Assembly (NCBI GenBank): GCA_963798925.1
Contig: CAWCVD010000007.1
Location: forward strand, 318,805-382,804
Direction of reading: 5' to 3'
DNA: 64,000 bases
Source of the DNA: an uncultured Acidobacteriaceae bacterium
Lineage (GTDB): Bacteria; Acidobacteriota; Terriglobia; Terriglobales; Acidobacteriaceae
Below, piece after piece: positions 35,652 through 54,418 of the stretch; the first letter of the stretch is position 1, and each line of letters opens with the position of its first letter. The notes below the pieces were generated by a model. It saw only the letters and a program-made list of their open reading frames with translations, made no database searches and was not told the origin of the DNA. The translations under genes and the position numbers were made by a program.

Positions 35652-35667
35652 ACCCGCTCTTTCTCGC

Positions 35668-37447: not shown

Positions 37448-37518
37448 CTCCGTTCTGCACCATAGCCGCATTGTTCTGAATTAACGAAGCTCTCACCCAC
37501 CCGGAGGCTCTTTCGTCC

Positions 37519-40140
37519 ATGCGTTCTATTCGTTCGGCTCTTTTGTTCCCCGCTCTCCTTGTAGCCTCGGCCCTCACCTCCACCCTCCTCGCCCAGTCCG
37601 CCGTCACCTCGCCCGAAAAATTCTTTGGCTTCCAACTCGGAGCCGATCGCAAGATGGCTCGCTGGGACAAGATCGTCGAATACTACAACCTCATCGAGAA
37701 GCAGAGCGGCGGCAAGATGAAGGTCATCAACATGGGCCCCACCATGAACGGCAATCCCTTCCTCATGGTCATCATCACGTCACCAAAAAACCTGGCGAAC
37801 ATCGACACCATCAAGAAAAACAATCTCACCATCGTCAACCCGCACAGCACGCCTGAAGCCGAGATCAAAAAGCTCATCGCCACCGGCAAAGTCATCGAAG
37901 TCCAGTCCATGAGCATGCACGCCACTGAGATCGGCGGCACGCAGATGGCTCCCGAGCTCGCCTACGATCTCATCACTCGCACGGACGAGGACACCCAGCG
38001 CATCCTTGACAACACCGTCCTGATCGAAGTCCCCTGCTTCAATCCCGACGGCGAGATCATGGTAACCGACTACTACAACTCCACCCTCGGCACGCCATAC
38101 GAGGGATCCAACTATCCCTCCCTCTACGCCAAATACATCGGCCACGACGACAACCGCGACGCTCTCCTCACCTCTATGAACGAGAGTCAGTACATGGCCA
38201 GTCTGCTCTTCACCGGCTGGCGCCCCGAGGTCTACGTCGACCATCACCACCAGGGCAGCTACGGCGCGCGCATCTCCCTCCCGCCCTACGCCGAACCCAC
38301 TCGTCCGTACGCCGACCCGCTCATCTGGCGCGAGGTCGCCTGGTACGGCGCTCAGATGGCCTACAAAGAGACCGAGAACAACTACACCGGAGCCATCAAC
38401 AACGCCATCTACTCCGGCTGGGGACACTTCGGCTTCCACTGGATCACGCCCTTCCACAACATCGACGGCATGCTCACCGAATCCGCCAGTGCGAAGCTAG
38501 CCTCCCCGATGTACATCCTTCCCGAGCAGCTAACCGGCGGTGCCCGCAATCTGCCAAAGTACGAAGAAGAGACCATCTTCCCCGATCCATGGCCCGGCGG
38601 CTGGTGGCACCTTCGCGACATCGTCAACATGCAGAAGACCGCAGCCTGGGCCGCCCTTGATCTCGCCGCCCGCAATCGCGAGACCGTCCTCTGGAACGCC
38701 TACCAGAAGGCAAAAAACCAAACTGCTCGCGGCGCAGCGGCCGACACTCCCAACTACGTCATCCCCAGCATTCAGGAAGATCCCATCACCGCGAACTTCC
38801 TCGTCCAGAAGCTCCTCGTCCAGGGCATCGACATCCAAAAGGCCACCAAGCCCTTCACTTCACCCGACGGACACGCCTATGACGCCGGTTCTTACATCAT
38901 CTCTCTCGCCCAACCGAAGATGGGTCTCATCCGCAATCTCCTCGATCGCAACTTCTTCCCAGACAACGACTGGACCCGAGACAAGAATGGCGATCCCATC
39001 CGTCCCTACGACCTGTCGACCGACAATGTAGCCGAGTTCATGGGCGTCCGCGTCGATCACGTTGCAGGCCCGCTCAACGTCGAAGCGAAACTCATCACCG
39101 AAGCTCCGCTCGCACCCGGAAAGGTCGCTGCAGGTTCGTCCGGCTATCTCCTCAGCGCCAAACTCGACGCCTCCTACAAGGCAGTCAATCTCCTCCAGGC
39201 CAAGGGCGTTGCAGTCAGCCGCATCGTCAAACCAGTCGACGGAGCCACCGTCGGCGACTTCGTCGTAGCTAAAGGCTCCGAAGCCGATATCCGCGAGATC
39301 GCCAAATCCACCGGTGTCGATCTCGCACCTGCCCCCACCATCCCTGCCGACAGCACCATCGCACTCAAGCAGAAGCGCATAGGCCTCTATCAGCGCTACT
39401 ACGGCGGCAACGTCGACGAAGGCTGGACCCGCTGGCTACTCGAGCAGTGGGGCTACAACCCAACCAGTCTCCTCGATCCCGAACTTAAGAAGGGAGACCT
39501 CAATGCAAAGTTCGACGTCATCGTTATCCCCGATGACTCAACCGCCACCCTCACCGGCGAAACCGGAACAGCCGGCGGACAACGAGGCGGCGGGGGAGGT
39601 GGCGAAGGCTTCGGTCGCACCCCCACTGACTACGCCCCCGAGTACCGCAGCGGCTTCGGCGAGGAAGGTATAACTGCGCTCAAGTCTTTCGTCCAGAAAG
39701 GTGGCACTATCGTCACCCTCGGGACCGCCAGCGACTTCGCCATCGAAAAACTCGGAGTCCACGCGCGCAACATCGTAGGCAACCTGCCCACCAAGCAGTT
39801 CTGGTGCCCCGGCTCCACCCTCAAAGTCTCCGTCGATCCAACCAACCCACTAGGTTACGGTATGCCCAAACAGAGCCTCGCGCTCTACCTTCAGGGCGAC
39901 CCCGTATTCCAGATCACCCCAACCAACTCCAACGAACGCTACTCTGTCATTGTCAGCTACGAAAAAAGAGACATTCTGCAGAGCGGCTGGCTCGTAGGCG
40001 AAGGCAACATTACAGGAAAAGCTGCCATGATCTCCGCCGAAATGGGTAAGGGCAAAGTCATCCTCATTGGCTTCCGCGCCCAGCACCGCGCCCAGACCTA
40101 CGGAACCTTCAAACTCTTCTTCAACAGCTTGACCAACTAG
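37519..40140 (+). CDS. large secreted M14-family zinc carboxypeptidase-like protein
   Basis: Signal peptide; HxxE zinc motif in SMHATEIGG; 873 aa with a long C-terminal extension. Confidence 0.75.
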   Translation: MRSIRSALLFPALLVASALTSTLLAQSAVTSPEKFFGFQLGADRKMARWDKIVEYYNLIEKQSGGKMKVINMGPTMNGNPFLMVIITSPKNLANIDTIKKNNLTIVNPHSTPEAEIKKLIATGKVIEVQSMSMHATEIGGTQMAPELAYDLITRTDEDTQRILDNTVLIEVPCFNPDGEIMVTDYYNSTLGTPYEGSNYPSLYAKYIGHDDNRDALLTSMNESQYMASLLFTGWRPEVYVDHHHQGSYGARISLPPYAEPTRPYADPLIWREVAWYGAQMAYKETENNYTGAINNAIYSGWGHFGFHWITPFHNIDGMLTESASAKLASPMYILPEQLTGGARNLPKYEEETIFPDPWPGGWWHLRDIVNMQKTAAWAALDLAARNRETVLWNAYQKAKNQTARGAAADTPNYVIPSIQEDPITANFLVQKLLVQGIDIQKATKPFTSPDGHAYDAGSYIISLAQPKMGLIRNLLDRNFFPDNDWTRDKNGDPIRPYDLSTDNVAEFMGVRVDHVAGPLNVEAKLITEAPLAPGKVAAGSSGYLLSAKLDASYKAVNLLQAKGVAVSRIVKPVDGATVGDFVVAKGSEADIREIAKSTGVDLAPAPTIPADSTIALKQKRIGLYQRYYGGNVDEGWTRWLLEQWGYNPTSLLDPELKKGDLNAKFDVIVIPDDSTATLTGETGTAGGQRGGGGGGEGFGRTPTDYAPEYRSGFGEEGITALKSFVQKGGTIVTLGTASDFAIEKLGVHARNIVGNLPTKQFWCPGSTLKVSVDPTNPLGYGMPKQSLALYLQGDPVFQITPTNSNERYSVIVSYEKRDILQSGWLVGEGNITGKAAMISAEMGKGKVILIGFRAQHRAQTYGTFKLFFNSLTN

Positions 40141-40172
40141 AAAACGGGCAAAAGATACCCACAACACCGAAA

Positions 40173-40212
40173 AGCCTGATCTTCGCATTCCTCGCGAAGA
40201 TCGGGCTTTTTT
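40173..40212 (+). terminator. rho-independent terminator
   Basis: AGCCTGATCTTCGC / GCGAAGATCGGGCT stem followed by T6. Confidence 0.75.
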
Positions 40213-40277
40213 CAGTCGATCATCCCCTCGTCGGCAATCAGAAGCTTAGGCTTTCTTGCAAAAAATATCCCTTTGGG

Positions 40278-40317
40278 TTGACATCCGACCCAAACGAGGT
40301 CAATACTTGGGTCGGAT
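40278..40317 (+). promoter_or_regulatory. candidate promoter (-35 TTGACA, -10 AATACT) embraced by a 10-bp inverted repeat operator; probably a leaderless padR
   Basis: TTGACA 40278-83 and AATACT 40302-07 (18-nt spacer). ATCCGACCCA 40283-92 pairs with TGGGTCGGAT 40308-17. The last repeat bases overlap the ATG at 40316. Confidence 0.4.
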
Positions 40318-40687
40318 GGCTACCCAGGACAATAACGACGAACGCATCGCCTTATTGCAGGGCACTCTCGACCTGCTGATCCTCAAGACACTTGTGCTCG
40401 GGCCGTGCCATGGGCAGGGGGTCGCGCGCCTGATTCAACGCCAGTCCGAAGAGGTATTTCTTGTCGACCATGGTTCGCTCTATCTCGCGCTGCAGCGTTT
40501 AGAAGATAAGAAGTGGATCAGCGCGAAGTGGGGAGTTAGCGAGAACAACCGCAAAGCCAGGTTCTACTCCCTGACGCCGAAAGGCCGCGAACAACTCGTC
40601 GCAAAGACGAGCGAGTGGCAGCGTCTGACTCGCGCCATGGGTTTAATTCTGGATTCAAGCAAGGGGCCACTCAACGAGGAGGCTTAG
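40316..40687 (+). CDS. PadR family transcriptional regulator (second copy)
   Basis: [26 protein letters not shown]...[38 protein letters not shown] 40316 within ORF 40256..40687. Confidence 0.9.
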
Positions 40688-40689
40688 CT

Positions 40690-43325
40690 ATGTTCTGGCG
40701 CAAGCGGAGTGCAGAGGATTTCGCCGAAGAGATCAAGGCACATCTTGAACTCGAAGCAGAGGACCTGAAGCGCGAAGGTTTGAGCGAGGAAGAGGCGCGG
40801 TGGAAGGCCCGGCGTGAGTTCGGCAATGTGCGGCGCGCGCAGGAACAGTTCTATGTGAAGGGACGCTTCGTCTGGCTGGACAGCCTATCGCACGACCTGC
40901 GATTTGCTCTTCGCCAGATGCGCCGTTCTCCCGCCTTTGCCGTTACCGCGGTCCTTACCCTGGCGCTGGGGATTGCCGCAAACGTGATCGTCTTCGGTGT
41001 GCTGCAGGCTCTGGTCCTGCGGACACTCGATGTGCCACATGCCGATCAGGTAATGACGCTCGCCCGTACCGATCAGACCTATCCGATCTTTTCTTTTCCG
41101 GAAGTCCGCGATGTCCGCGATGGAAATACGGTATTTTCTGCCGTCGCCGCCTGGAATGTCGACAATTTTGGCCTGGAGGCCAATGGCGTTACTCGGCCCG
41201 TATGGGGAGACACGGTAAGCGGGCAATACTTCGAGGTCGTTGGCATCAAGCCGTTCCTCGGGCGTCTGCTGCAGCGCGCCGATGACGACCATCCCGGAGC
41301 TTCAGAGACTGCGGTGCTCTCATGGGCAGCCTGGAAGAGTGATTTCGGCGCGGACCCCGACATCGTCGGGAAAGATAATCCGCCTCAACAAGCATCCATA
41401 CACGATCGTCGGTGTCACCCCGGAAGGCTTCAACGGGACTGAAAAATTTCTGCAGCCTGATCATCTTTGTTCCGATGGCGAACGAAGCATCGCTGGACGG
41501 GGGCAACTGGCTTGAGTCGCGCAACAATCATCAAGTCTTTTCTATCGTGCGCATCAAGGACGGGGTCACGATGCCCCAGGTGCAGGCTGAACTGAATACG
41601 ATTGCTGCCCGCATCCGACGGCAATATCCAAAAGAAGAAGAGAAGCTGGGATTCAAGCTCACTCGTCCAGGCCTGATGGGCGACTTTTTTGGTGGCCCGG
41701 TGCGCGGTTTTCTGGCTGGGGTACTGGGGCTGGCAGGTATTGTCCTGCTCGCCGCCTGCGCCAACCTCGGCAGCCTGTTCGCAGCGCGCACCGCGGACCG
41801 CGCTCGCGAGATTGCCATCCGCATGGCTATTGGATCGAGCCGCTGGAGGGTTGTCCGTCAGATTTTTGCCGAGGCCCTTGTGATCTCGGTGCTCGGAGGT
41901 GCCTGCGCCTGTGGTTTGGCGTGGATCGCCCTCACCGGTTTGGCTAATTGGCACCCACCCACTGAATACCCTTTCAGCTTCCATGTTCAACCGCAGCCGT
42001 CTTTGATCTTAATGGCGTTGCTGATCTCGCTCCTCGCCGCTCTACTCTTCGGGGTAATGCCTCTGCGGCAGATCTTCAAAACCGATCCAAATGACGCGAT
42101 AAAAAACGGTGGAACTCAATCTTCGGGCGGACGCCGCTGGGCGCTTCGCGATGTCCTGCTGGCGGCACAGATCGCTCTCTGCTGCGTCACCGTCACGGCT
42201 GCCTTTGTCTCTCTGCGCGGCCTCGCCAGGGCGCTGACGATGAATATGGGTATCAATCCGAAGCAGGCCGTCGTGACGAAATTCGAGCTCAGCCAGGCTG
42301 GCTACTCGAGCGTCGCGGCCGATCAGTTCCAGCGTCAGTTGGAGGAAAGGGTGGCGCAGCTCCCGGGAGTGGAAGCAGTAGCCTACGCTGACGCCACGCC
42401 GCTTTCCCAGGATGCGTCTTCTACTCCGAATATCTTCTCGCAACAGACCGCAGATCTCAGACCCTCAAACCGGGCGTTCAACGCCTACGGATTCAACGTG
42501 TCCCCTGGATACTTTATTGCCGCGGAAACATCTCTGCTCGCTGGACGCGACGTAAGTTTCGCCGACACTCCGAAGACTCCGCCCGTGGTTGTTGTGAACC
42601 AGGAGTTCGCTCGCCGCCTCTTCCACTCCGACCAGGCCGTCGGCCAATATTTTAAAAGCTCAACCGGCGAGTCCATCCAGATCGTAGGCATCGTAGCCGA
42701 TGGAAGATACTTCACCCTCAGTGAAGATCAGGAACCCGCAGTGTTCTTCCCGATCTCGCAACGCCCAGGTACCAAGACATCCCTCATCGTCAGGACCCAT
42801 GCGGATTCCTCCGAAGCGACCACGAACGATATCGCAGCCACTATTCGCAAGGTGATCCGCGATCTCGATCCCACCATTCCGGTCCGGGAATCGAGTGCCT
42901 GGAAAAACCAACTCGGACTGACCTTCTTTCCATCCCAGGTGGCTACCGTCGCCCTCGGCCTCTTCGGCGCCTTTGGGTTGCTGCTCTCGATCACGGGCAC
43001 CTTCGGCCTCGCGTCCTACACCGTCAGCAAGCGGCTGCGCGAACTGAGCATCCGCGTCGCCCTCGGGGCGCAGGCGAAACAGATTCTCTCGGCCGCGCTC
43101 GGTCGCATGCTCATCCTGCTAGCCAGCGGTTCTGTTGTCGGAATGCTGCTCGGTGTGGCCGCAAGCCGACTGCTCTCGGCTATCGTCTACCAGGCCACAG
43201 CGCAGGACCCATTCGTCCTCGCTGCTGTCGCATTAACTCTTCTGCTCACAGGATCACTTTCGGTCGCTGGTCCCGTCAGACGCGCTCTGCACGTCGACCC
43301 GGCAAACGTGCTCCGCGAACAGTAA
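40690..43325 (+). pseudogene. ADOP-family duplicated permease interrupted by two frameshifts
   Basis: ORF 40615..41442 (from ATG 40690, MFWRKRSAEDFAEEIKAHLELE) ends at ...DPDIVGK. The family continuation IIRLNKHPYTIVGVTPEGFNGTEKFLQPD is in ORF 41240..41515, and IIFVPMANEASLDGGNWLESRNNH... is in ORF 41412..43325. Confidence 0.75.
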
Positions 43326-43440
43326 TCAACTTCAGCCCCGGAACGGCGCACCTCATGTGAGAAATCCCACATCAACATCGTCGTGGCAAACGCCGTCACG
43401 AAGCATTGAGGCTGCCTGTAATATTTTTTTCGCGTTTTTA

Positions 43441-43696
43441 GCCCAAAAAATGCATGTCAAGTCCCAAAACCAACTAAACCATTACACTGCAACAATATCC
43501 ACGTGGCATTTTAGTTTCACGCAACCCGTTAGAATAGATATATAGATCAAATAAGAGGCCCCGGACATCGGTCCGGGGCTAACCTTTTGGAATCAAGACT
43601 TTAGTCGAAGTATCCTTTGTTTTGAGGAGTTTGCAGTAGAAGTCCAAAGCTAAGTCTCAATTTTGCAAGACTTTACACGATTTCGAGGAGGGAGGG
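43441..43696 (+). repeat. left arm of the inverted repeat flanking the motility module
   Basis: 43441-43551 matches rc 52325-52435 at 89/111 positions (hand count). Patchy similarity continues to 43696. Confidence 0.8.
43557..43590. terminator. GC-rich hairpin (probable bidirectional terminator) inside the left repeat
   Basis: GCCCCGGAC-atcg-GTCCGGGGC with T-rich runs on both sides. Lies between convergent genes. Confidence 0.5.
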
Positions 43697-43706
43697 AAAT
43701 GCAGTC

Positions 43707-44159
43707 TCAGAACGCCAATACGACCCCAAATACATTCCCTTGGAAGGAGTAGTTCCGACTGAATTTGGTTCCAAACTGAGTCCGATATCCCTCAAGCCCC
43801 TCCCGGGTCACCGCAGGAGTCGAGATCGAGCAGTTCGAATCAGGCGAAGCCAGTTTGCTCTTCCAGCCGCCGGCAATCATGTTGCACAGTTCGCCGATAG
43901 CATCGTCGACCATCGGGTCGTGCGGCTCGGACGGGGTGCCCAGCAGAGCCTCCGCAGTCACCGACGCCGTCGCCTGACTCGCATAGAGCAGACACTCCCC
44001 GGCGACAGCGCCCGTAAATTGAATTCTGGCCACAATCCTTCCCTCGACGGTGTCAACCTCGCCCTCCAACGGATCGCAGCTTCGCTCCAGCATCGTCTCA
44101 AACACCTCCGAGACAGCGGAATCCAACTGGGTCATCGCCTCATCCTTCACTCTCGTCAC
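43707..44159 (-). CDS. cheX: CheX-like chemotaxis phosphatase (CheC/CheX/FliY superfamily)
   Basis: VSEVFETML ... DAIGELCNMIAGGWKS motif; about 150 aa. Sits directly downstream of a CheY-like gene. Confidence 0.75.
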   Translation of the reverse strand: MTRVKDEAMTQLDSAVSEVFETMLERSCDPLEGEVDTVEGRIVARIQFTGAVAGECLLYASQATASVTAEALLGTPSEPHDPMVDDAIGELCNMIAGGWKSKLASPDSNCSISTPAVTREGLEGYRTQFGTKFSRNYSFQGNVFGVVLAF

Positions 44160-44208
44160 GCTCGTCCTCTTCTCGCTTCAAATTTGAATCCAATATCCAA
44201 CAAAACAT

Positions 44209-44685
44209 CTAAGCCGCCCGAAGTAGGGGAAGCACCCGCATCTTCACCTGCTCCGCAGTAAACGGCTTGCAAATATAACCCTGAGCGCCCGCAGCTATCG
44301 CGCGCAGAACAAACGTCTCGTTATTTTCGGTCGTAATCATCACCACCGGAACCCCCTCGGCAAGGTTCTCCTGCCGCCGCGTCTCGAGAAACTGCAGTCC
44401 ATCCATCACCGGCATATTGATGTCACTCAGAATCAATGCCAGTGAAGAAGCACCCTGATTCTCCCGAAGGACCTGCAATCCCTCCTCGCCGTTTGAGGCC
44501 TGCAATACTTCAGTAAGCTCAAGCCCGGCCTGTCGCAGAGCCCGCTCAACTACCTTCCTCATCACCGCCGAATCATCCACAATCAGAGCTCGCAACCGAC
44601 CCTCCCCAAATCTGCACCCAGTCTGTATCTGGTCTGAGATCACTATCGGCATTCCATCCGCAGACTTGAGCTCGACCCTTAGCAT
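44209..44685 (-). CDS. cheY: CheY-like single-domain response regulator with ~30-aa N-terminal extension
   Basis: ALIVDDSAVMRK, LILSDINMPVMDG, ICKPF receiver signature. Confidence 0.85.
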   Translation of the reverse strand: MLRVELKSADGMPIVISDQIQTGCRFGEGRLRALIVDDSAVMRKVVERALRQAGLELTEVLQASNGEEGLQVLRENQGASSLALILSDINMPVMDGLQFLETRRQENLAEGVPVVMITTENNETFVLRAIAAGAQGYICKPFTAEQVKMRVLPLLRAA

Positions 44686-44711
44686 CCTCTAACCTACGCT
44701 CCCCAGACTTC

Positions 44712-44726
44712 GGCCAACCAACTGCA
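44712..44726 (+). promoter_or_regulatory. possible sigma-54 (-24/-12) promoter for flgF
   Basis: cGGCCaaccaacTGCAt has GG (44712-13) and TGC (44723-25) spaced as in TGGCAC-N5-TTGCA. It lies in a 53-nt divergent gap. The predicted +1 is about 2 nt before the flgF ATG, which lacks an SD. Confidence 0.3.
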
Positions 44727-44738
44727 TATCCCAGTAGC

Positions 44739-45494
44739 ATGGACAGCGGACTCTACGCAGCTTATACAGGTCTACTCGCGAGAACCCAGGCGCTCGACAC
44801 CGCAGCCAATAATCTCGCCAATGCTGGAACAGTGGGCTTCCGGGCTCAGCGTGACTACTTCAGTGGAGTATTGGCAGGAGGTCTCGATCAGGATCCCGCG
44901 ACCGCCTCTCAGGTAGGCCAATCCGTCAACGGATTTGGTGTCCTCGGGGGCAATCGGCTCGATCTCGGACAGGGAGAGATCGAGGCCACAGGCAATCCGC
45001 TCGACCTTGCCCTCCAGGGTCAGGGCTTCTTCGCCATCCAGACTGCCAACGGTATCCGTTACACACGTGATGGTGCCTTCTCCCGTTCCTCCACGGGTGT
45101 CCTCCAGACCGCACAGGGCGAACCGGTCCTCGACACCACCCAGAAGCCCATCACCATCCCCACCGGTAGCGTCTACGTGGCGCCAGATGGCACTATCTCG
45201 GTCTCTACACCCGACGGCAGCGCCATTGTAGGGAGGGTGGGTGCCTACGACTTCGCAGAAAAATCTGTTCTAACCGCGGAAGGTGCGAATCGCTTCTCTG
45301 CCAACGGAGCAAAGCCGATTCCAGCAGCCGCAGCCGTTGAGCAGGGCTCTGTTGAAGGAGCCAACGAAGACGCCATTCACGGGACGATGCAGCTGGTCTT
45401 GGTTCAACGGCAGGCAGAGATGATGCAAAAGGCGCTCAGCGTCTTCAACAACGACTTTGACAAGACCGCATCCGAGGACATTCCCAGAGTCTGA
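44739..45494 (+). CDS. flgF: flagellar basal-body rod protein FlgF
   Basis: N-terminal ALDTAANNLANAGTVGFR and C-terminal GSVEGANEDAIHGTMQLVLVQRQAEM rod-protein signatures. Confidence 0.85.
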   Translation: MDSGLYAAYTGLLARTQALDTAANNLANAGTVGFRAQRDYFSGVLAGGLDQDPATASQVGQSVNGFGVLGGNRLDLGQGEIEATGNPLDLALQGQGFFAIQTANGIRYTRDGAFSRSSTGVLQTAQGEPVLDTTQKPITIPTGSVYVAPDGTISVSTPDGSAIVGRVGAYDFAEKSVLTAEGANRFSANGAKPIPAAAAVEQGSVEGANEDAIHGTMQLVLVQRQAEMMQKALSVFNNDFDKTASEDIPRV

Positions 45495-45544
45495 TGCGCA
45501 TGACAGCTGGAGACCTCAGCTTTCCCGACATAAAGGAGCCAGTA

Positions 45545-46333
45545 ATGATTCGAGCGTTATACACCGCAGCAAGTGGAATGAGTGCCCAGCAGACCAATCT
45601 GGACACAATAGCTAACAACCTCGCCAACTCGGCCACTGCAGGATTTCGGCAGCGGCAGGTGCAGTTTGAGGACATGATCTACCAAAACCTAATCACGCCA
45701 GGCTCGGCGCAGACTCAACAAACCCTCTCCGCGGGGCTGCAAGTTGGCCTTGGAACTAAGTCGGCCGCAAGTGAAGTAATCATGACTCAAGGCGACTTCA
45801 ACCAGACCGGAAATACATTGGATCTTGCCATCCAGGGTGCAGGCTTCTTCCAGGTATCCCGGCCTGACGGCACCATCGCCTACACACGAGCAGGAAACTT
45901 CCACATGAGCAATCAGGGCACGATTGTGACTGCTGATGGTGATACCATCCTGCCCGCGATCACGATCCCATCGAACGCAACCTCGCCAAGCATCTCTAAA
46001 TACGGGGTGGTGTCAGCCGTACTTGCTGGCCAAACAAATCCCACCCAACTAGGCACGATCCAATTGGCAACGTTTGCCAACCCCGGAGGTCTGAGTTCCG
46101 TGGGCAGCAACCTCCTTGAGCAAACCGCGTCCTCAGGAAACCCGATTACCGACACCCCGGGTGGCACCAGCGGAATGGGCACCTTGCAATCGGGCTCATT
46201 GGAAACCTCAAATGTCGACGTTGTTGCAGCGTTTGTGCAAATGATTCTGGCGCAACGCGCTTACGAAAGTAATTCAAAGGTCATCCACGTGGCTGACGAT
46301 ATGTATTCACAAATTAACAGTCTGATCCGGTAG
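45545..46333 (+). CDS. flgG: flagellar basal-body rod protein FlgG
   Basis: MIRALYTAASGMSAQQTNLDTIANNLANSATAGF ... LETSNVDVVAAFVQMILAQRAYESNSKV. AAGGAG upstream of ATG 45545. Confidence 0.9.
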   Translation: MIRALYTAASGMSAQQTNLDTIANNLANSATAGFRQRQVQFEDMIYQNLITPGSAQTQQTLSAGLQVGLGTKSAASEVIMTQGDFNQTGNTLDLAIQGAGFFQVSRPDGTIAYTRAGNFHMSNQGTIVTADGDTILPAITIPSNATSPSISKYGVVSAVLAGQTNPTQLGTIQLATFANPGGLSSVGSNLLEQTASSGNPITDTPGGTSGMGTLQSGSLETSNVDVVAAFVQMILAQRAYESNSKVIHVADDMYSQINSLIR

Positions 46334-46339
46334 GAATCG

Positions 46340-46888
46340 ATGATCCGTAAACTTTGCGTACAAAGCAGACATATAGGCTTGACCTCCTTACTCATGTGCC
46401 GCATTGCCTGTGTCGGCAGTTTTGCGAAAGCAAATTGCTCTAACCCGCCCATTTCGACAACCGACACAGTTCATATTAGTTCGGTTTTGCCGTCGACCCT
46501 CGCGAATATCGGTTACAGAGTAACCAATATTCGGTCGGATTCAGTGCTGGGAGAGGCATGGGCAACCATCTCTAACTGTTCTCACCCGGATTGGCCGGAA
46601 TTTGCCCTTCCAGTTAATGGAAAAGGTTGGACTAGCAAATCTCAAGAAGCATCTTCCCCTTCGATCCATGACGCTAAAGGCCATGTCATTCACGCCGGCG
46701 AAATCGTTCAGCTATGGAAACAGGAGACCAGCTTACGCATTGAGACTCTGGGAGTTTCAGAGGAAAATGGCGGCTTGGGCGAGACGATTCGAGTACGGTT
46801 ATTGCGCAGAAGCACTGGCGGTCAATCTGGGCCAGAGGATCTCTCGGGAGTGGTCCGGGGTCCGTCGAATGTGGAGATACAGCAGTGA
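46340..46888 (+). CDS. flgA: flagellar P-ring formation chaperone FlgA
   Basis: Position between flgG and flgH. C-terminal SAF-like VIHAGEIVQLWKQETSLRIETLGVSEENGGLGETIRVRL. Confidence 0.7.
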   Translation: MIRKLCVQSRHIGLTSLLMCRIACVGSFAKANCSNPPISTTDTVHISSVLPSTLANIGYRVTNIRSDSVLGEAWATISNCSHPDWPEFALPVNGKGWTSKSQEASSPSIHDAKGHVIHAGEIVQLWKQETSLRIETLGVSEENGGLGETIRVRLLRRSTGGQSGPEDLSGVVRGPSNVEIQQ

Positions 46889-47661
46889 TCGAGCTAACCC
46901 GAATGAAATCGTCGCCCAATATTGATTCGCTGAGGTCCGAAGGGTTGCTGACGCTGATTCTCGCTATCTATTTATCACTATCAGCAGTTTCGCTGCTTTC
47001 GGCACAAACTAGTGGAGTTCACAAATCGAGTGAATCCAAACCCAATGTTGCAGCCGCATCTCTGAGTTCTTACTTGGAGAGAGTGCGAACGGAAAACTCG
47101 AATATTCAAGCCGCGCCTGGTTCTATCTGGATCGATAATGGACGATTCACTCGAATGGTGACGGATGTGCGCGCAATGCGGCCTCATGACCTGATCTCGG
47201 TTGTGGTCTCAGAAAGCCTTGCAGCCTCTACAGATGGAACCGTTAAAAACTCGCGAGCTTCCAATGCGAGTTCTGCAATCTCAGGCTTAATTGGAACTTT
47301 GCATGCGGGAAATGCGCTTCAAAATCTCATCAACCAGACATCATCCTCGGGACTAAACGCGCAAGGAACTAGCGCGACAAATTCCAGTCTAAGCACGACT
47401 TTCGGTGGCCAGGTCATCGAAGTACTCCCAAACGGAATGCTTGTGATCGAGGCCGCTCGGCAGGTCGAGTTCAGCCAACAGACACAGACGATTGTCCTGC
47501 GTGGATTGGTCCGGCCTGAGGATATCTCCCAACAGAATCAAGTTCTGTCGACTGCCATATCGAGCCTTGAGTTAGAAGTTCGGGGCAAGGGGATCATAGA
47601 TGACTACACACATCGCCAGAATGTACTTGTGCGGCTTCTGCAAAAGGTATTGATCTTCTAA
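46885..47661 (+). CDS. flgH: flagellar L-ring protein FlgH
   Basis: GTGA overlap with flgA (alternative ATG 46903). GSIW..., LVIEAARQVEFSQQTQTIVLRGLVRPEDISQQNQVLSTAI. Confidence 0.85.
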   Translation: MIELTRMKSSPNIDSLRSEGLLTLILAIYLSLSAVSLLSAQTSGVHKSSESKPNVAAASLSSYLERVRTENSNIQAAPGSIWIDNGRFTRMVTDVRAMRPHDLISVVVSESLAASTDGTVKNSRASNASSAISGLIGTLHAGNALQNLINQTSSSGLNAQGTSATNSSLSTTFGGQVIEVLPNGMLVIEAARQVEFSQQTQTIVLRGLVRPEDISQQNQVLSTAISSLELEVRGKGIIDDYTHRQNVLVRLLQKVLIF

Positions 47662-47671
47662 GTGGGGAACC

Positions 47672-48841
47672 ATGCGTTCTGAATTGGCTAGACCGGGAGT
47701 GTCACAAATTTCACGATGGTGGAAGAGCAACGTCTATTGTTGGACTACGGTTGCGCTCCTGATCTCTGCTTCCACCTGGACCTCGGCCTTGGATCCGGGT
47801 GCGCCCAGGCAGGCGCGCGTCAAGGACATCTCGTCAATCGAAGGTATTCGGGACAATCAACTGGTTGGCTACGGCATTGTCGTAGGTCTTCAGGGAACTG
47901 GCGATACACAGCAAACTGCCTTTCCGATCCAAACGCTAGCAGCGACACTGCTCCGAATGGGGGTGAGTGTTCCAGCGTCTTCGATCCGCGTACAGAATCT
48001 GGCCGCGGTCTTCATCTCGGCAACGCTGCCTCCTTTCGCACGATCAGGTACAAAACTGGATATCACGGTATCTTCGGCGGGTGATGCGAGGAGTCTCGAA
48101 GGTGGCTTGCTTCTGATGACACCTCTATATGGAGCGGATGGAAAGATCTATGCCCAGGCTCAGGGATCACTAGTAGTCGGAGGGTATTCGGTTGCCGCGA
48201 ATGGAAATGTAAAGCAGTTCAACCATCCCAATACAGCCAGGGTTCCTTTCGGGGCTATTGTGGAACGCGGAGTTTCGTTGGACTTGGACGGGAAGAATCG
48301 GTTTTCTTTGTTGCTGAATGATGCTGATTTCCGTAGCGCGGAGGCGATGGCTAGCGCTATCAACCAATCGCTCAAGCGGCCAGCGGCTCGAGTGTTGGAT
48401 AGTCGGAGAATTGAGTTGTCGGTTGATCAAGGGCAAGAGGTCCCTGCGCTGCTGGCGGAGGTCGAATCGATTGAAGTTCCTGTTTTCCCTCGGTCCAAGG
48501 TAGTTGTCAACGAGCGCACGGGAACGGTGGTTATCGGAGGGACGGTTGTCTTGCAGCCAGTATCGATTTTGCATGGCGGTTTGGCGGTGAATGTAGTCAG
48601 TGAGTTTCACGTATCGCAGCCAAGTGCCTTCTCCTCGGGCGGGACGACTCAGGTTGTGCAGCAGACAAGAATCGATACACAGGACAAGCCGGTCAGTCGG
48701 ATCGAGTTGAAGCAAGGAGCGACAGTGGATGATCTTGTTCGCAGCTTGCAGACAATCGGAGCCTCGGCGCGTGACGTCATCTCGATTCTTCAGGCGATGA
48801 AATCCGCCGGTGCGCTAGAGGCGGAGATTGAGGTGTTATGA
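47672..48841 (+). CDS. flgI: flagellar P-ring protein FlgI
   Basis: RVKDISSIEGIRDNQLVGYGIVVGLQGTGD ... LQAMKSAGALEAEIEV. Confidence 0.92.
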   Translation: MRSELARPGVSQISRWWKSNVYCWTTVALLISASTWTSALDPGAPRQARVKDISSIEGIRDNQLVGYGIVVGLQGTGDTQQTAFPIQTLAATLLRMGVSVPASSIRVQNLAAVFISATLPPFARSGTKLDITVSSAGDARSLEGGLLLMTPLYGADGKIYAQAQGSLVVGGYSVAANGNVKQFNHPNTARVPFGAIVERGVSLDLDGKNRFSLLLNDADFRSAEAMASAINQSLKRPAARVLDSRRIELSVDQGQEVPALLAEVESIEVPVFPRSKVVVNERTGTVVIGGTVVLQPVSILHGGLAVNVVSEFHVSQPSAFSSGGTTQVVQQTRIDTQDKPVSRIELKQGATVDDLVRSLQTIGASARDVISILQAMKSAGALEAEIEVL

Positions 48842-49155
48842 AGATTAGCTCTGATGTTTCGAGTCAGTCGGCGACATTTCAGGAACAGAGGCGAGCCAAA
48901 TTGGTCGATGCTTCGCAACAGTTTGAGGCGGCTATGCTTCAAGAGCTGCTGAAGCCCATGCAGCATGGCCAGGGTGATTGGGATGGCGATGGTAAGAACG
49001 ACGACTCGGCCTCAGACACGATGAGCAGTTTTGGCACCGAAGCGGTTGCGAAGGCTATCTCGGAAAGAGGCGGATTTGGGCTAGCGAAGATGATTGTCGC
49101 GAAGGTAACACTGAAGCACGAGAAAAATTCCGAAAAGAACACGGCTCAGTACTAA
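48838..49155 (+). CDS. flgJ: rod-binding protein (FlgJ N-terminal domain only, no muramidase domain)
   Basis: ATGA overlap with flgI. AKLVDASQQFEAAMLQELLKPM motif; only 105 aa. Confidence 0.7.
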   Translation: MKISSDVSSQSATFQEQRRAKLVDASQQFEAAMLQELLKPMQHGQGDWDGDGKNDDSASDTMSSFGTEAVAKAISERGGFGLAKMIVAKVTLKHEKNSEKNTAQY

Positions 49156-49179
49156 AGTTTGTCAGTTTGCCGCCGATAT
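49153..49179 (+). promoter_or_regulatory. sigma-28 (FliA)-type promoter upstream of flgM
   Basis: TAAA (49153-56), N15, then GCCGATAT (49172-79), against the consensus TAAA-N15-GCCGATAA. 24 nt upstream of the flgM ATG, which has a GGAGG SD. Confidence 0.6.
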
Positions 49180-49202
49180 ATTCAAGTAGACGGAGGATTA
49201 CG

Positions 49203-49502
49203 ATGAGTTTTATCAGTGGTTTAGGTAGTTTGCAGGCTGGGGGCGGCAGGGTGGCACCCTCAGAGACAAAGCCGGTCAAGGCGATCCCACCCGAAGGGCA
49301 GGTCGAAGGAACGGTCGCTGATGTGCAGCATGGGGATCAGACAGAGCTGAGTTCGACCGGCGGCTTGGTGGCTCAGGCGCTGGAGAGTTCCGATGTACGG
49401 ACTGCCAAGGTTGCGGCTCTGCAGCAGGCGATAGTCACCGGAACCTACAACGTGCCATCGTCCGGCGTGGCAGACAAGATTATCCAGTCCTTGTTGGAAT
49501 AG
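49203..49502 (+). CDS. flgM: anti-sigma-28 factor FlgM
   Basis: ~100 aa. C-terminal DVRTAKVAALQQAIVTGTYNVPSSGVADKII matches the FlgM sigma-binding region. ATG 49203 within ORF 49167..49502. Confidence 0.75.
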   Translation: MSFISGLGSLQAGGGRVAPSETKPVKAIPPEGQVEGTVADVQHGDQTELSSTGGLVAQALESSDVRTAKVAALQQAIVTGTYNVPSSGVADKIIQSLLE

Positions 49503-49504
49503 CT

Positions 49505-49765
49505 ATGGCCTGCGAGCAAAGTCTAGCCGCCATTCTTGATGAGACCGCCGAAGCTCTCAGCCATCTTGATCTGATCAAGCTTCAGGGTTTGGAGCAACGG
49601 ATCCTTCTGTTGGCACAGAGTAGCGCGAGGTTGGAAACGAACGGAATCGATATTTTGCTCCCGAAGAGAAGTCGATTGGAGATCATTCTTCAGAATTGCA
49701 AAGTCAACCTGGATGCGCTGAGGCGTCTCCATGCCAGGAATGCGAGGAAGCAATGGGCACAATAA
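49505..49765 (+). CDS. flgN: possible FlgN-like export chaperone
   Basis: Small helical protein in the flgM-flgN-flgK position. Sequence signature is weak. Confidence 0.4.
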   Translation: MACEQSLAAILDETAEALSHLDLIKLQGLEQRILLLAQSSARLETNGIDILLPKRSRLEIILQNCKVNLDALRRLHARNARKQWAQ

Positions 49766-51157
49766 GCTCTTTAGTCGATATCGCGCAGCAGGCGCTTCTA
49801 GCCGACCAGGAGGCCCTTAACGTTACTTCAAACAATGTCGCGAATCAGAACACCGCCGGGTACACGCGGGAGGTTGTAAGCTTTCAGTCGGTTGACGCCG
49901 TTACGTTGAGTGGGAGCGCGGTCGGCACCGGTGTTACGGCGACGGCTACCTCGCAGCGGGACCGGGTTCTGGAGCAGCAAGTGCAGCAACAGACTCAGGT
50001 TCAGGCGCAGTCAGGGGCACTCGAATCCGCGTTGGAGCAGATTCAAAATACCTTCGGCCTTAGCTCAACGTCCAGCTCTGCCAGTTCGACGGCGCTTGGT
50101 ACCGCGACCGACTCCTTTTTCAGTGCGCTCTCATCATTGGCGGCCAATCCTTCGGATACGGCGACCCGGCAGAGTGTGTTAAGTGCGGCCAATGCTCTGG
50201 CTGGGGCTCTTAACTCCGCAGCCAATCAGCTGGCGCAGACTTCTTCGAGCCTGAATCAACAGGTTGCGGGCGATGTCGGCCAGGTGAACTCGCTCACAAC
50301 GACGATTGCATCGCTCAATGCTGAGATATCCTCCCTCAGTCCCAACGCGGATGCCGGTAGTCTGGAAGATCAGCGGCAGCTTGCGATCACGCAATTGTCT
50401 CAACTGGTCGGCCTGGATCAGATTTCGACCGAACAGAACGGCATTACTTTGACGACGAGCGGCGGCGCGGTTCTGGTTAGCGGCAGCAAGGCATTTGCGA
50501 TGGGCACGACGCAGGTTGGGGGGACCACCCACATCTTAGCCGGAGTTGGCGGACAGGATGTAACTTCGAGCCTGACTGGGAGGCGATCTTGGCGGCGTTC
50601 TCGCGGCGAGAGACAAGCAGTTGCCGAGTTACCAGAGCGCTCTCGACACATTGGCTTTCAGCATCGGCACAAAAGTCAATCAGCAGAACGAGCTTGGAGT
50701 TGATGCCAGCGGCAATCCCGGGGCGGCACTCTTTACTCTTCCGACATCGGCGAGCGGAGCTGCAGTGCAGATCCAGGTCGCCACAACCAATCCCAGTGCG
50801 ATGGCTGCGGCTGCCTCTGGCGAAGGGTCAGCCGGGAACACGAACGCTTCGGCGCTGGCTGCTCTTTCGACCGCCGCGATCGCAGGTGGTCAGACGGCTT
50901 CGGGATTTCTTACCTCCTTTCTTGGCCAGGTCGGCAGCGATACTGCCGCGGCGAAGACCAATAACAGTGCGCAGCAGGCGACGCTGACGCAGTTGACGAC
51001 ACAGAGAGATTCGCTCTCCGGCGTGTCACTGGACGAAGAGGCGTCAAATCTAACGCAGTATCAAAGGGCTTATCAGGCGGCGTCGCAGGTGTTCAACATT
51101 GCCAATTCGATCATGGCCAGTGCTCTGAACCTTGGGGTCGAGACGACTGTGACCTAA
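49753..51157 (+). pseudogene. flgK: flagellar hook-associated protein 1 FlgK, interrupted by one frameshift
   Basis: N-terminal part in ORF 49696..50703 from ATG 49753 (LNVTSNNVANQNTAGYTRE). After ...SSLTG the family continuation GDLGGVLAARDKQLPSYQSALDTLAF... runs to the C-terminal GVSLDEEASNLTQYQRAYQAASQV in the frame of ORF 50621..51157. The shift is at about 50578-50583. Confidence 0.75.
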
Positions 51158-51208
51158 TGGCCGATTAGCCATTGCCGAATTCCAAGACTAAAGCTGAGGA
51201 GCATGATC

Positions 51209-52108
51209 ATGAGAGTAGATCCGAACTATATAACCAATTTGTCGGTGTCGCTGGACCAGTCGACCAAGGAGGAGGATACGTTGACCTCCGAGTTGTCGAG
51301 CGGATTGCGCGTCGCCTCACTCTCGGATGATCCGGTTGCGGCGGAACAGAGCATGCTGCTTGGGAGTTCGATTGCGCAGGACGATACCTTCGTGCAGACC
51401 GCTTCCGATGAAGCGTCGCGGATGCAGGTTGCTGATTCGACGTTGGGCGAAGTCGTCAGCGAGGTGACCAGTGCGATTTCGACGGCCGTCTCGGGTAACA
51501 ATGGGACGGACAATGCGAGCGATGTTGCCAGCGTTGCTCAAACGTTGAGCGGAGTTCGCGATCAGGTGCTTTCCCTGGCGAATACGAGCTACCAGGGGCA
51601 GTATTTGTTTGGCGGTAGCGACGGTTCAGTTGCTCCTTTCTCTCTTGATACGACGACCGATCCGGCGACGGCGAATTATGCCGGAGACAATAAAATTCAA
51701 TATGCTGAGACTCCCAGCGGACAGAAGATTCAGGTCAATCTTCCGGGATCCGCCGTGTTCGGTAATGGGAGCTCCGGCGTGCTGGGAGCGTTGAATAAGT
51801 TGATCTCAGATTTCTCTGGTGGTGCGGCGTCGGCTACGATTGCGACGGACACCTCCGCGCTGACTGCGGCGCTAGGTCAGTTGTCCTCGCAGCGTTCGAC
51901 GCTCGACAGTGCGCTGAGCCGGCTACAGTCGAATAGCATGTATGTGCAGACTGAAGAGACCCAGTTGACCGTCGCGCAGGGCAACCTGGTGTCTGCGGAT
52001 CCAGCGACGGTCGCGACCCAACTGTCTCAGGCTGAGACCCAGCATCAGGCTTTGCTGAGCGTGATTAATGCTCTAGGGAGTTCGGACCTGTTTGGCCTGA
52101 TGAAGTAA
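51209..52108 (+). CDS. flgL: flagellar hook-associated protein 3 FlgL
   Basis: MRVDPNYI...SSGLRVASLSDDPVAA ... flagellin-like C-terminal helix. GAGGAG lies 9 nt before ATG 51209. Confidence 0.8.
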   Translation: MRVDPNYITNLSVSLDQSTKEEDTLTSELSSGLRVASLSDDPVAAEQSMLLGSSIAQDDTFVQTASDEASRMQVADSTLGEVVSEVTSAISTAVSGNNGTDNASDVASVAQTLSGVRDQVLSLANTSYQGQYLFGGSDGSVAPFSLDTTTDPATANYAGDNKIQYAETPSGQKIQVNLPGSAVFGNGSSGVLGALNKLISDFSGGAASATIATDTSALTAALGQLSSQRSTLDSALSRLQSNSMYVQTEETQLTVAQGNLVSADPATVATQLSQAETQHQALLSVINALGSSDLFGLMK

Positions 52109-52145
52109 CGCTCTTTCCTGCGGCGTCATGAATTCAACCTGGGGA

Positions 52146-52435
52146 CCCCCTCCTACCCTGTTTTTGCGCAAAGTCTTCATAAGACGTAACTTACCTTTGG
52201 ACTAAGTCTATTAGTCTGCCTAATTCAAGGGCTTGAGATTCAAAGTCTTCTTTCTAAATAAGTTAGCCCCGGAGGGTCTATTTTCCCAGGGGCTTGCTTG
52301 TTTTCCCCACGGGGCTTGCTTGTTTTTGATCTATATATCTAGTGTAGCGGGTTGACCATAACTAAAATGCCACGCGGATGTTGTTATTGGGTAACAGGTT
52401 AGGTGGTTTTGGGACTTGACACGCCATTATTGGGC
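52146..52435 (-). repeat. right arm of the inverted repeat flanking the motility module
   Basis: rc 52325-52435 matches 43441-43551 (89/111). rc 52146-52205 matches 43639-43696 and 27974-28034. The middle part carries extra GC hairpins (AGCCCCGG..., CCCCACGGGG). Confidence 0.8.
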
Positions 52436-52557
52436 TGTTCTTGGAATAAAACGCTCTAAGTGACTGATGGAACAATGGTTAACTAGGATACGTTGGGCGG
52501 GCTCCAAAGGGGGTGGGGCAGCATGGAAAACGTGGAGAGCGAACGGTTGTCCGATAG

Positions 52558-52594
52558 AAAGCAGATTCCTCCGCTGTGCTGCGGAATGACAAGG
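52558..52594 (-). repeat. REP-like hairpin element, copy 2
   Basis: Its reverse complement CCTTGTCATTCCGCAGCACAGCGGAGGAATCTGCTTT is 36/37 identical to 13003-13039. Confidence 0.7.
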
Positions 52595-52929: not shown

Positions 52930-54418
52930 TCATCTTGGGATGAGGGTGAAGCTTTCGATGGAAACTTTGGCTCCGGCACGGGCGCGCTCGGGGGCGGGCA
53001 CGAAGAAGATTGTGATCTCGTCAAATCGATGGATTGTGGCCGAACTCGAGATGGGGAATCGAAGTACCTCTTCTACAGGCGGGCGGTTTAGTGGAATCTG
53101 AGCAGGTTTGCTGGATGCGATTGTTCGCAGCCCAAGGTCGTGGGATGGCTCTCCTATGGAGCTTGAGTCTGCGAGACGTAGACCGAGTGCGATTATTCCG
53201 GGGCGGACGTCATTATTGGTAATGGCAACTTCGATTTCACTGCAACAGGTCAGGTCGATCGAGGTGCCTAGATTCTGGTAGGCCGCCATCAACAGAGGCG
53301 CCGAATTGGTGGAGTGCACATTGGCGTAGGTAGACCTTCCGTGAGCTATATGAGCGCGTGGTCCTGGCCGCTTGCTAGGTGCTTTGAAGTACCAGTATTG
53401 CCCGTCAAAGGGAATTACTACAGGTTTGGCTGCCCTTCCATTTGCGAGCGAATCGGCGGTGCGGCCTGGGTGGCACGATCTCTGTCTTTTTTATCGGCGG
53501 CGGCCATAGGATGATGCCGACGTATTCAGAGCCGGGTACGTCTGCTTCGGTTGATTCGTGGGTAAACAGGGCCGGCTTATGAGATGGCCTATTTGAGGCA
53601 TACGATTTACCTCCGAGCCAAGGAATGAGTGAAAGCATTGTGAAGACGATGGCGAGTGCGCAGAGCAAGATCGACTGTCTGCTGCCGGTAAATCTCTCCT
53701 TCGCTCTCGGATCGCTCCAACGCCAGACGAACGTGACGAGACAGGTCGAGAGCAGGATGCCGGCGACGATGAGATACCCCGCGGCAGCGAAGATGAGGGC
53801 TGTTTGACCGCAGATTGCCATGAAGAAGGCGCGCATGGGACGGAAGCCGGCTATGGGTAGGCCATAGAGACTTGGCAGGTCGCTGGTGTACCAGGCCTGA
53901 GGTTTTTCCTGCCCTGATTCGGCGGTTGCTGGGAACAGGCGTCTGACACTCAGGACCAAAGTGATGGCAGCGAAGGCTAGAGCCAGGAACATGGAGGGCG
54001 ATTGCTGGCGATAGAGCAGGGTGATGCAGGGGAAAAATATCCAGCCGACTCCCGCTTTCTTCGATAAGGAGATCAGGCTGAAGGAAGGTTTGATTTTGAG
54101 AAAGAGCCAGGGAATTGAAGTTCCTACGGCACCCACGACAGCGGTGACGGCAATGTATTTGATGGAGAGAGAGAAGATCGTGGTCCATGAGAGGGTGTGC
54201 GCCTTCGGCAACTGGCAAGCGAGAGATGCGATCATGGCTGCCGAAAGGCAACCTGTAACGATCAGTAACCCTGTTTCATTGGGATCTGAGTCGCCAGGTG
54301 GGAGTGCAGCTAAACGGTTCGTTCTGCGAGAAGCATCTTTGGGGGCAGAGTCTGCGGACTCATCTCTCAACGCGGAAGGTAGTTGCAGTGGACTCATGTC
54401 GCGATATACAGCCCTCAC
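52930..54418 (-). pseudogene. multi-pass membrane protein with C-terminal soluble domain, split by a frameshift
   Basis: ORF 53405..54418 (several TM helices) ends ...YVGIILWPPPIKKTEIVPP... A second frame is open from about 53490 and reads ...AAKPVVIPFDGQYWYFKAPSKRPGPRAHIAHG... into ORF 52930..53319. No family recognised. Confidence 0.55.

Follow-up and report, generated by a model that had tools for sequence, protein, structure and literature searches.

The DNA examined here, a 64,000-nucleotide stretch of an uncultured Acidobacteriaceae bacterium (contig CAWCVD010000007.1 of assembly GCA_963798925.1; hereafter the window), carries a motility block of two divergently transcribed operons, cheY-cheX and flgF-flgL. 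The block is bracketed by two inverted copies of a non-coding element that belongs to a dispersed family. Gene calls place both copies in convergent (3'-3') gaps just downstream of the motility operons, as a preliminary description of this DNA had stated: on the left a MacB/FtsX permease gene (41412-43325, + strand) converges with cheX (- strand), and on the right flgL (+ strand) converges with a - strand gene ending near 52930. Each copy is co-oriented with the outer gene and points at the end of the motility operon. The framing genes and the two copies, in window positions, are as follows.

43431-43691, + strand: left element copy, whole, pointing inward to cheX (family profile models, pairwise and 7-sequence alignments)
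43707-44159, - strand: CheX (Pfam)
44209-44685, - strand: CheY-type receiver (Pfam)
44739-45494, + strand: FlgF (Pfam)
51203-52108, + strand: FlgL (Pfam)
52141-52443, - strand: right element copy, whole, pointing inward to flgL (family profile models)

The repeat itself is real by several measures. A repeat search of the interval 42.5-53.5 kb returned a single long inverted pair (43440-43551 and 52325-52436; 112 nt, 80% complementary, 8773 nt apart), and a recount of 43441-43551 against the reverse complement of 52325-52435 gave identity at 89/111 positions, the value reported earlier. By blastn within the window the arms match each other with E = 7e-25, and no third copy of the arm occurs in the 64 kb. 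The exact blocks that the preliminary description had quoted are each confined to the two arms: TGTCAAGTCCCAAAACC and CGTGGCATTTTAGTT have two exact matches apiece in the window, all in the arms, where 0.14 and 0.09, respectively, would be expected. The longest identical run between the arms is 18 bp. Inward of the core, the pairwise alignment runs through a GC hairpin, then CTAAC, then repeated AAGACTTT-type words, and then a G-run. Profile hidden Markov models (HMMs) built from other family members only, with the window and its orthologues excluded, match the left copy at 43431-43551 (E = 1.5e-29) and 43556-43691 (E = 1.6e-11), and the right copy at 52443-52323 (E = 9.5e-30) and 52298-52141 (E = 5.9e-14). 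Because models of independent members match the inner halves too, the weaker inward similarity up to the G-run, also noted earlier, is true homology; from the extents of the matches, each arm is therefore about 260-300 bp long.

Among the earlier suggestions, that the arms are two members of a genome-wide repeat family is supported. Five metagenome-assembled genome (MAG) loci of Acidobacteriaceae/Edaphobacter carry the element (one genome per species scanned, with two of the conserved blocks as the pattern), and so do at least 120 soil metagenome loci (Joint Genome Institute metagenomes, with blocks A and B, located below, as the pattern); these listed loci comprise 101-104 distinct full-length copies, depending on the span required. 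Membership is supported by blastn and nhmmer as well as by the patterns, and the HMM searches brought in further copies that miss the exact patterns, together with copies consisting of the inner half only. Retrieval relied on three blocks (A, B and C), gene calls in the fetched loci are heuristic (longest open reading frame [ORF] plus GC content at third codon positions), and the pattern of the one-genome-per-species scan fits only 3% of family members. A sixth match of that scan, in a Saccharibacteria genome (L007), was rejected as chance, as it has no blastn match and is absent from the new HMM matches. Contigs that carry the element hold it at a density of about one copy per 60-130 kb: three copies on a 201-kb contig (orientations -,+,+), two on a 310-kb contig and two on an 88-kb contig. 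The MAG copies adjoin cupin, GNAT/TonB-receptor, lactonase/IS481 and TPR-like genes and not flagellar genes, so that the implication of the original title, a repeat specific to the motility module, falls away: dispersed copies next to unrelated genes are what that description itself had named as evidence against it. A rule by which copies form convergent pairs around cargo was likewise rejected, since contigs show -,+,+ and +,+ arrangements at 19-130 kb spacing.

The family appears to be undescribed. Rfam 15, which includes Acido-1 and Acido-Lenti-1, gave no match in the window at the gathering threshold; at E-value thresholds the left copy has only chance-level matches of 15-17 bits against cut-offs of 42-114, and none overlaps the element in the three further loci searched (L003, L004 and L008). 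No blastn match was found in plasmid and phage collections, and the element was not found in the searchable literature on Acidobacteria small RNAs (sRNAs), on repeats or on Edaphobacter flagella.

Several side observations concern the distribution of the copies and their surroundings. Two loci hold clustered copies: a convergent pair about 200 nt apart in L053 (976-1261, + strand; 1733-1473, - strand) and a direct pair 2.7 kb apart in L010 (622-881 and 3279-3579, both + strand); block B is variant in one member of each pair. Some ten contigs from short-read metagenomes (L018, L036, L045, L052, L062, L072, L075 and others) end 5-55 nt past block B, as they should if assemblies break at the conserved outer half because it is a multi-copy repeat. 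In some 15-25 of 109 metagenome copies a motif (G)GGCGAAGCGACTGATTCTATTGCCGTTGC..TTGCC.TTATTTTTCTTTT lies 55-75 nt upstream of block A; the element may be longer in a subfamily, or the motif may be a frequent neighbouring repeat. A palindrome like the repetitive extragenic palindromic (REP) sequences, CATTCCGCAGC(A/G)CAGCGGAGGAATC, occurs twice in the window, at 13009-13033 (+ strand) and at 52564-52588 (- strand), the latter about 150 nt outside the right arm, and related GTCATCCC..GGGATCTGC units stand upstream of many family copies elsewhere.

Each copy can be divided into an outer half, a GC hairpin and an inner half, with the following parts in the window.

43455-43471, + strand: block A, TGTCAAGTCCCAAAACC, left copy (exact)
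43504-43516, + strand: block B, TGGCATTTTAGTT, left copy (no variation among the 7 aligned sequences; included in both search patterns)
43530-43535, + strand: -10-like hexamer TAGAAT, left copy, 13 nt past block B
43558-43579, - strand: GC hairpin GCCCCGGAC-CGAU-GUCCGGGGC followed by CUCUUAUUUG on the cheX strand, left copy (terminator scan match)
43584-43696, + strand: inner A/U-rich half, left copy, with AAGACUUU-type repeats and the G-run end GAGGAGGGAGGG (43685-43696), homologous to the 3' part of the family
52141-52158, - strand: G-run/near-palindrome GGGUAGGAGGGGGUCCCC at the end of the right copy, with 33 nt between it and the flgL stop
52266-52315, + strand: GC hairpin region, right copy, with a 20-22-nt tandem duplication (AACAAGCAAGCCCC..GGG), reading as two hairpins on the flgL strand with CUUGCUUGUUUU(U) after each
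52341-52346, - strand (read 52346-52341): -10-like hexamer TACACT, right copy (read from the sequence, at the same offset as in the family)
52360-52372, - strand: block B, right copy (exact)
52405-52421, - strand: block A, right copy (exact)

In family alignments the outer half has a constant order: a T-rich run, GCCCAAAAAtCGCA, TGTCAAGyCCCAAAAC, an A/C-rich variable spacer and TGGCATTTTAGTT. All seven aligned sequences keep TGTCAAG, and the pattern that retrieved the five MAG loci among them lacks it; block B varies in two HMM-found copies. A hexamer of the form TAnnnT follows block B by exactly 13 nt in 106 of 110 distinct copies, most often as TATACT (72), then as TATAAT (16), TATTCT (6), TACAAT (4) and others; its fixed columns have frequencies of 0.99 (T), 1.0 (A) and 0.99 (T), the middle positions are free, and the site was absent from all search patterns. 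Conservation of this kind looks like the signature of a -10 element of the sigma-70 family. CATTTT, within block B, fills the -35 position, 16-18 bp upstream. Other promoter assignments were rejected: block B fits neither sigma-54 (GG-N10-GC) nor sigma-28, since the alignment shows no conservation of the -12 GC or of the CGA core, and for an outward promoter starting from the invariant TTGACA (the reverse complement of TGTCAA), TAnnnT stands at 15-19 bp spacing in 0 of 119 copies.

The GC hairpin has the family form GCCCCGG...CCGGGGC, followed on the hexamer strand by a nearly invariant UAAC (in the left copy, by the conserved CUAAC). In the left copy it folds better than expected on either strand (z = -4.1 on the + strand, -3.4 on the - strand). 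Across the family it is more stable on the strand opposite the hexamer, by 58 copies to 17 (75 of 76 copies untied; Wilcoxon p = 2e-7). Pairing is maintained over 32 copies, with 71% of cells paired against 65.5% in shuffles (0 of 500 reaching it), and double, compensatory changes occur in 6 of 7 hairpin pairs (4 of 500 shuffles). Since the reverse strand of the family consensus gives the hairpin and then the U-tract CUUGCUUGUUUUUGAUC, the shape on that strand is that of a canonical intrinsic terminator for transcription coming from the inner side; the left copy thus offers an intrinsic-terminator-like site at which cheY-cheX transcription would end. In the right copy the hairpin region reaches -30.5 kcal/mol on the + strand against -24.0 on the - strand. 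Its tandem duplication (AACAAGCAAGCCCC.TGGG.AAA, 52281-52325) is present in the window and in L002 and absent from the otherwise near-identical public assembly L001, and constitutes a length polymorphism inside a terminator-like hairpin.

The inner half comprises about 110 A/U-rich nucleotides with short conserved blocks (..AUUUUgGcCGUAACCCCUUUGUUAUGA.UAUUUUGCAG..CGUAAA..AUUGA..UUUAC..) and ends in a G-run or the palindrome GGGGGTACCCCC (consensus GGGGG(G)TACCCCC), beyond which similarity stops abruptly. A column-pair search of the element returned many competing compatible pairings with few double-sided changes, and beyond the GC hairpin the element shows little conserved RNA structure. Three word repeats of the inner half vary jointly within a copy, reading AAGACUUU three times in the window copies, L010, L026 and L047 and AAUAUUUU three times in most others, and different variants coexist on one contig (L010). 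In each window copy the G-run (GGAGGG-like) is followed by an ATG and an ORF of 17-19 codons (43700-43753, + strand; about 52128-52069, - strand) that overlaps the end of cheX or flgL in antisense orientation; these ORFs are probably chance, because the ATG is not kept in the orthologous copies of L029, L065 and L123.

The element is non-coding, and no ORF is conserved between its two window copies; here tests of frame, codon position and the ratio of nonsynonymous to synonymous polymorphism (pN/pS) agree with the preliminary description. A forward ORF from a conserved ATGA was rejected for lack of codon periodicity and because about a dozen of some 60 listed copies have in-frame stops. On the reverse strand a frame is open in many copies and ends at an invariant TAG just before the hairpin; a small protein (..CKIFITKGLRPKY.KQTS*, with its stop in an invariant GTTAGC, then the terminator) might be encoded in the inner half as a type I toxin, with the forward promoter making the antisense RNA, in a convergent layout of promoter and terminator like that of 3'-overlapping type I toxin-antitoxin loci. 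We regard this as highly unlikely: the frame has no conserved start codon or ribosome-binding site and has internal stops in 12 of 30 copies, its codon-position entropy is nearly flat (0.72/0.78/0.85), its pN/pS (0.78-0.90) resembles that of the other five frames (0.75-1.06), the peptide is not hydrophobic, and the frame is not kept in the window copies.

Copies occupy intergenic gaps of every kind. Downstream genes run in the direction of the element in 43 cases and converge with it in 47; upstream genes share its direction in 46 cases and diverge from it in 33. Of the 53 gaps for which both neighbours could be scored, 31 are tandem, 17 convergent and 5 divergent. The inner end abuts the next gene at a median of 23-29 nt, whichever direction that gene has, with about 220 nt of free sequence on the outer side. 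The co-oriented genes downstream are a mix of unrelated housekeeping genes (YjbR in six cases, HisA/F in three, and AKR, PurD, FabF, fumarase and tRNA synthetase), and no common function was found among them. These figures bear on the proposal that the element is purely a cis-acting terminator cassette, that is, a 3' untranslated region (UTR) for the converging gene, with an outer half that acts not as a promoter but, for instance, as an insulator to which a protein binds. The strand bias and U-tract of the hairpin favour the converging strand, convergent gaps are over-represented, and both window copies lie at operon ends. The proposal is nevertheless improbable, for 43 of 90 abutting genes are co-oriented and start about 29 nt after the element, where nothing converges, and conservation peaks on the far side of the terminator, past the point at which a 3' UTR would have stopped.

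The history of the copies can be followed at several loci. Recurrent downstream families represent the same loci in different species, so copies keep inherited positions. Three other metagenome contigs (L029, L065 and L123) also carry the cheX-side copy, and their CheX is 91-95% identical to that of the window; the orthologous copies are 73-76% identical in the 5' half, 81% in the hairpin region and 55% in the inner half, against 56-64% at third codon positions of cheX. Because the outer half and the hairpin are more conserved than those positions, they appear to be under purifying selection. Between the two window copies identity is 79% over the 5' half and 44% over the 3' half, and each is nearer (80-87%) to copies at unrelated loci than to the other. 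Among pairs at least 95% identical, flanks are shared in 8 of 9, meaning the same locus in another sample (for the remaining pair, L021/L105, the flank is too short), so neither a recent transposition nor a recent duplication giving rise to the window pair is indicated. Inspection by eye found no terminal inverted repeats or target-site duplications at the element ends; the 5' end (T-run, GCCCAAAAA) is not complementary to the 3' end (G-run/GGGGGTACCCCC), and outside the element similarity is lost at once. A miniature inverted-repeat transposable element (MITE) or a transposon derived from an insertion sequence was accordingly rejected, for want of terminal inverted repeats and of near-identical copies at different loci. 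Neither does the element fit an integron attC site (GGCTAAC resembles the inverse core with one mismatch, but there is no GTTRRRY at the 3' end) or the ends of Tn7, whose defining motifs are absent.

From these data we lean, with moderate confidence, towards the reading that the two arms are old, independently placed copies of a dispersed non-coding element of about 260-300 bp, each a self-contained punctuation module that combines a promoter, an sRNA and a terminator. The outer 105 bp or so would be promoter-like, with GCCCAAAAA, TGTCAAGyCCCAAAAC and TGGCATTTTAGTT followed 13 nt on by the -10 hexamer, and would fire inward. The GC hairpin would lie about 20 nt past the presumed start and serve, on the opposite strand, as a terminator for any converging gene. 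The inner 110 bp or so would supply the forward transcript with its body and the converging gene with its 3' UTR, the G-run/GGGGGTACCCCC abutting the next gene. The cheY-cheX and flgF-flgL operons would then both end in the reverse complement of an inner half plus a hairpin, and so share one 3' flank and terminator, while each copy would probably launch a non-coding transcript of about 150-190 nt toward, and partly antisense to, the 3' end of the cheX or flgL operon. The inverted geometry would follow from two copies that place their inner ends against both ends of a divergent operon pair, without being a recombination substrate. Of the shared 3' UTR, terminator or sRNA element suggested earlier, a terminator-like hairpin on the motility-operon strand and an inward-directed, conserved -10-like hexamer are thus present, and the transcript is a prediction. 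More tentatively, we think it possible that the family forms a multi-copy regulon of sibling sRNAs with an unusual conserved promoter (TGTCAAGyCCCAAAAC plus TGGCATTTTAGTT in place of a -35 element), whose members double as terminators and are here antisense to the 3' ends of both motility operons.

A number of observations weigh against this module. No acceptable -35 hexamer is present and a consensus promoter scan calls no promoter in the window copies; the promoter is for that reason a prediction, in which block B presumably replaces the -35 element. The invariance of blocks A and B arises partly by construction, because both were in the search patterns. A simple terminator scan does not call the right-copy hairpins, and about a fifth of copies have no hairpin at the aligned columns. 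The left inner half folds no better than shuffles (z = 0.06 and -0.37 on the two strands), and the same holds for the right one, an uncommon trait in a trans-acting sRNA this long; RNAalifold found almost no consensus structure in three alignments, on both strands. There is also no U-tract after the terminal palindrome, which leaves the 3' end of a forward RNA undefined.

The main rival builds on points of this kind: the element would be a passive, non-autonomous dispersed repeat, like BOX, ERIC or MITEs, that spread in the past, carries a chance hairpin and an AT-rich hexamer, and has no transcript of its own. Besides the weak RNA structure, it would account for modular partial copies (the inner half alone in L074, L104 and L131, the hairpin deleted or replaced in others), for patchy presence at the same gene borders between related genomes, for co-occurrence with other acidobacterial repeats upstream, and for the roughly ten fetched contigs that end inside the element. 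We judge it rather unlikely all the same. Terminal inverted repeats, target duplications and near-identical copies at different loci were not found, position is kept across species at the cheX, YjbR, HisA/F, AKR and PurD loci, and conservation of the 5' half exceeds that at third positions of codons in the adjacent gene. A T-A-n-n-n-T pattern with a free middle, moreover, is what a -10 element predicts and simple common descent does not.

Two further explanations treat the pair as a unit and were addressed by comparing the motility block in four relatives (L129-L132, including Edaphobacter paludis CP121195), whose CheX is 75-87% identical to that of the window. L130 has the flgL-side copy and lacks the cheX-side copy; the other three have neither, L129 holding a weak copy 4 kb away, L131 an inner-half fragment 1.2 kb away, and L132 no copy within 20 kb. 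The order and orientation seen in the window, PagL-FTCD-319-aa gene (+) ... cheX (-) ... flgL (+) ... DLH (+), recur in L131; L130 and L129 keep the 319-aa gene-FTCD-PagL side, L132 keeps the DLH side, and L029 has the 319-aa gene and FTCD beyond its cheX-side copy. The synteny comparison proposed in the preliminary description thus yields conserved order and orientation, with zero, one or two copies at the block borders, lineage by lineage, so the block has neither moved nor flipped. What differs is the DNA between the block and these outer markers: about 9.6 kb with peptidase, PadR and MacB genes on the cheX side, and on the flgL side a 434/487-aa gene also found in L130. The element copies sit at the junctions of the block with that inserted DNA. 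The cheX-side segment (31815-43325) puts about 9.6-11.5 kb, with S9, M20 and M14 peptidases, PadR and the MacB permease, between the 319-aa gene and cheX, which are adjacent in L129 and L131; it reads as a lineage-specific insertion with the left copy as its inner border.

Recombinational inversion of the 8.4-kb block, in the manner of a phase-variation switch, was one earlier suggestion, and two homologous arms of about 290 bp in inverted orientation around a functional gene block are what it would need. It is the least probable of the explanations considered, and we would give it almost no weight. The arms are 80% identical, called genes and Pfam matches of the 20-kb locus L001 include no recombinase, integrase, invertase or transposase, and with a longest perfect run of 18 bp (the minimal efficient processing segment of E. 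coli is about 23-27 bp) inversion by homologous or site-specific recombination is unlikely. The window, L001 and L002, three assemblies of the organism, all have one orientation, the block keeps its orientation relative to PagL-FTCD-319-aa gene and DLH, order and orientation are kept in five related lineages with zero, one or two copies, and most family members are single or in direct or divergent pairs. In Hin/hix flagellar phase variation of Salmonella and its relatives, inverted repeats also flank flagella-related DNA. Sites of the hix type are about 26 bp long, are nearly identical and need an adjacent serine recombinase, unlike the present 290-bp arms, which are 80% identical at best, have no recombinase and have been seen in a single orientation.

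Nor do the data favour the arms as ends of a composite mobile unit or as the scar of a horizontally acquired flagellar module, a footprint of acquisition in the earlier wording. The copies do stand exactly where the conserved block meets lineage-specific DNA. Acquisition is still very improbable, because relatives without the repeats hold the block in the same chromosomal neighbourhood: it lies between the same outer genes in L131 and L132, with no bordering copies. L130 has only the flgL-side copy, the cheX-side copy of L029, L065 and L123 borders on other outer DNA, the GC content of the block is ordinary, and the 20-kb locus lacks a transposase.

Other features of the locus complete the picture. 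The flagellar operon at the equivalent locus of L001 reads FlgF, FlgG, FlgA, FlgH, FlgI, a 105-aa protein, FlgM, an 86-aa protein, FlgK and FlgL, and the relatives of CheX carry Edaphobacter names in their source records, which assigns the organism to Acidobacteriaceae. FlgK (49696-51157) is split in the window into overlapping ORFs of 335 aa (49696-50703) and 178 aa (50621-51157) and is a single 467-aa gene in L001 and relatives; the split reflects either a pseudogene or a frameshift error in the long-read assembly. To the right of the right copy, a gene with no Pfam match (52930-54418) is also broken, into 337 aa (53405-54418) and 129 aa (52930-53319), and its counterpart is a single gene in L001 (434 aa or more) and in L130 (487 aa); this second apparent frameshift suggests indel errors at the assembly level in the window.

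Set beside known systems, the proposed promoter-and-terminator module behaves most like dispersed modular intergenic repeats and like sibling sRNA families with shared promoters, as far as the analogy carries. With BOX of Streptococcus pneumoniae and ERIC/IRU of enterobacteria it shares a length of 100-300 bp, a strictly intergenic location, many copies per genome in either orientation, a modular build, partial copies and hairpins, and as with ERIC the sequence is conserved across species and not only within a genome. It differs from them in its long asymmetric 5' half with a -10-like hexamer, in having no overall palindrome, no evidence of recent spread and no Rfam similarity, and in its restriction, as far as sampled, to Acidobacteriaceae. 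Like the sibling sRNA families Qrr1-5 of Vibrio and the cia-dependent small RNAs (csRNAs) of Streptococcus, it has several paralogous non-coding loci with a more conserved promoter region, free-standing in intergenic gaps in any orientation and kept in position between related species; unlike them, it has a putative transcript, no canonical 3' terminator and no convincing conserved structure or seed, and reaches a higher copy number. Intrinsic (Rho-independent) terminators in convergent gaps share its GC-rich hairpin, flanked by A-rich sequence 5' and U-rich sequence 3', whereas here the hairpin is part of a much larger conserved element, the other strand carries the invariant UAAC and no U-tract, and the distance to the stop codon is 150-250 nt.

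For the organism, what might have been a flagellar switch or an imported motility island is thereby reduced to two copies of a common intergenic element. The family may matter more widely. Acidobacteriaceae are among the most abundant soil bacteria, and to our knowledge almost nothing has been reported of their promoters, terminators and sRNAs. More than 100 aligned examples with a fixed -10 hexamer, an unusual upstream architecture and a strand-biased, terminator-like hairpin could provide a handle on the transcription signals of this phylum. The element also appears to break short-read assemblies, and the family would be useful for finding the regulator of blocks A and B and for annotating intergenic regions that are now blank.

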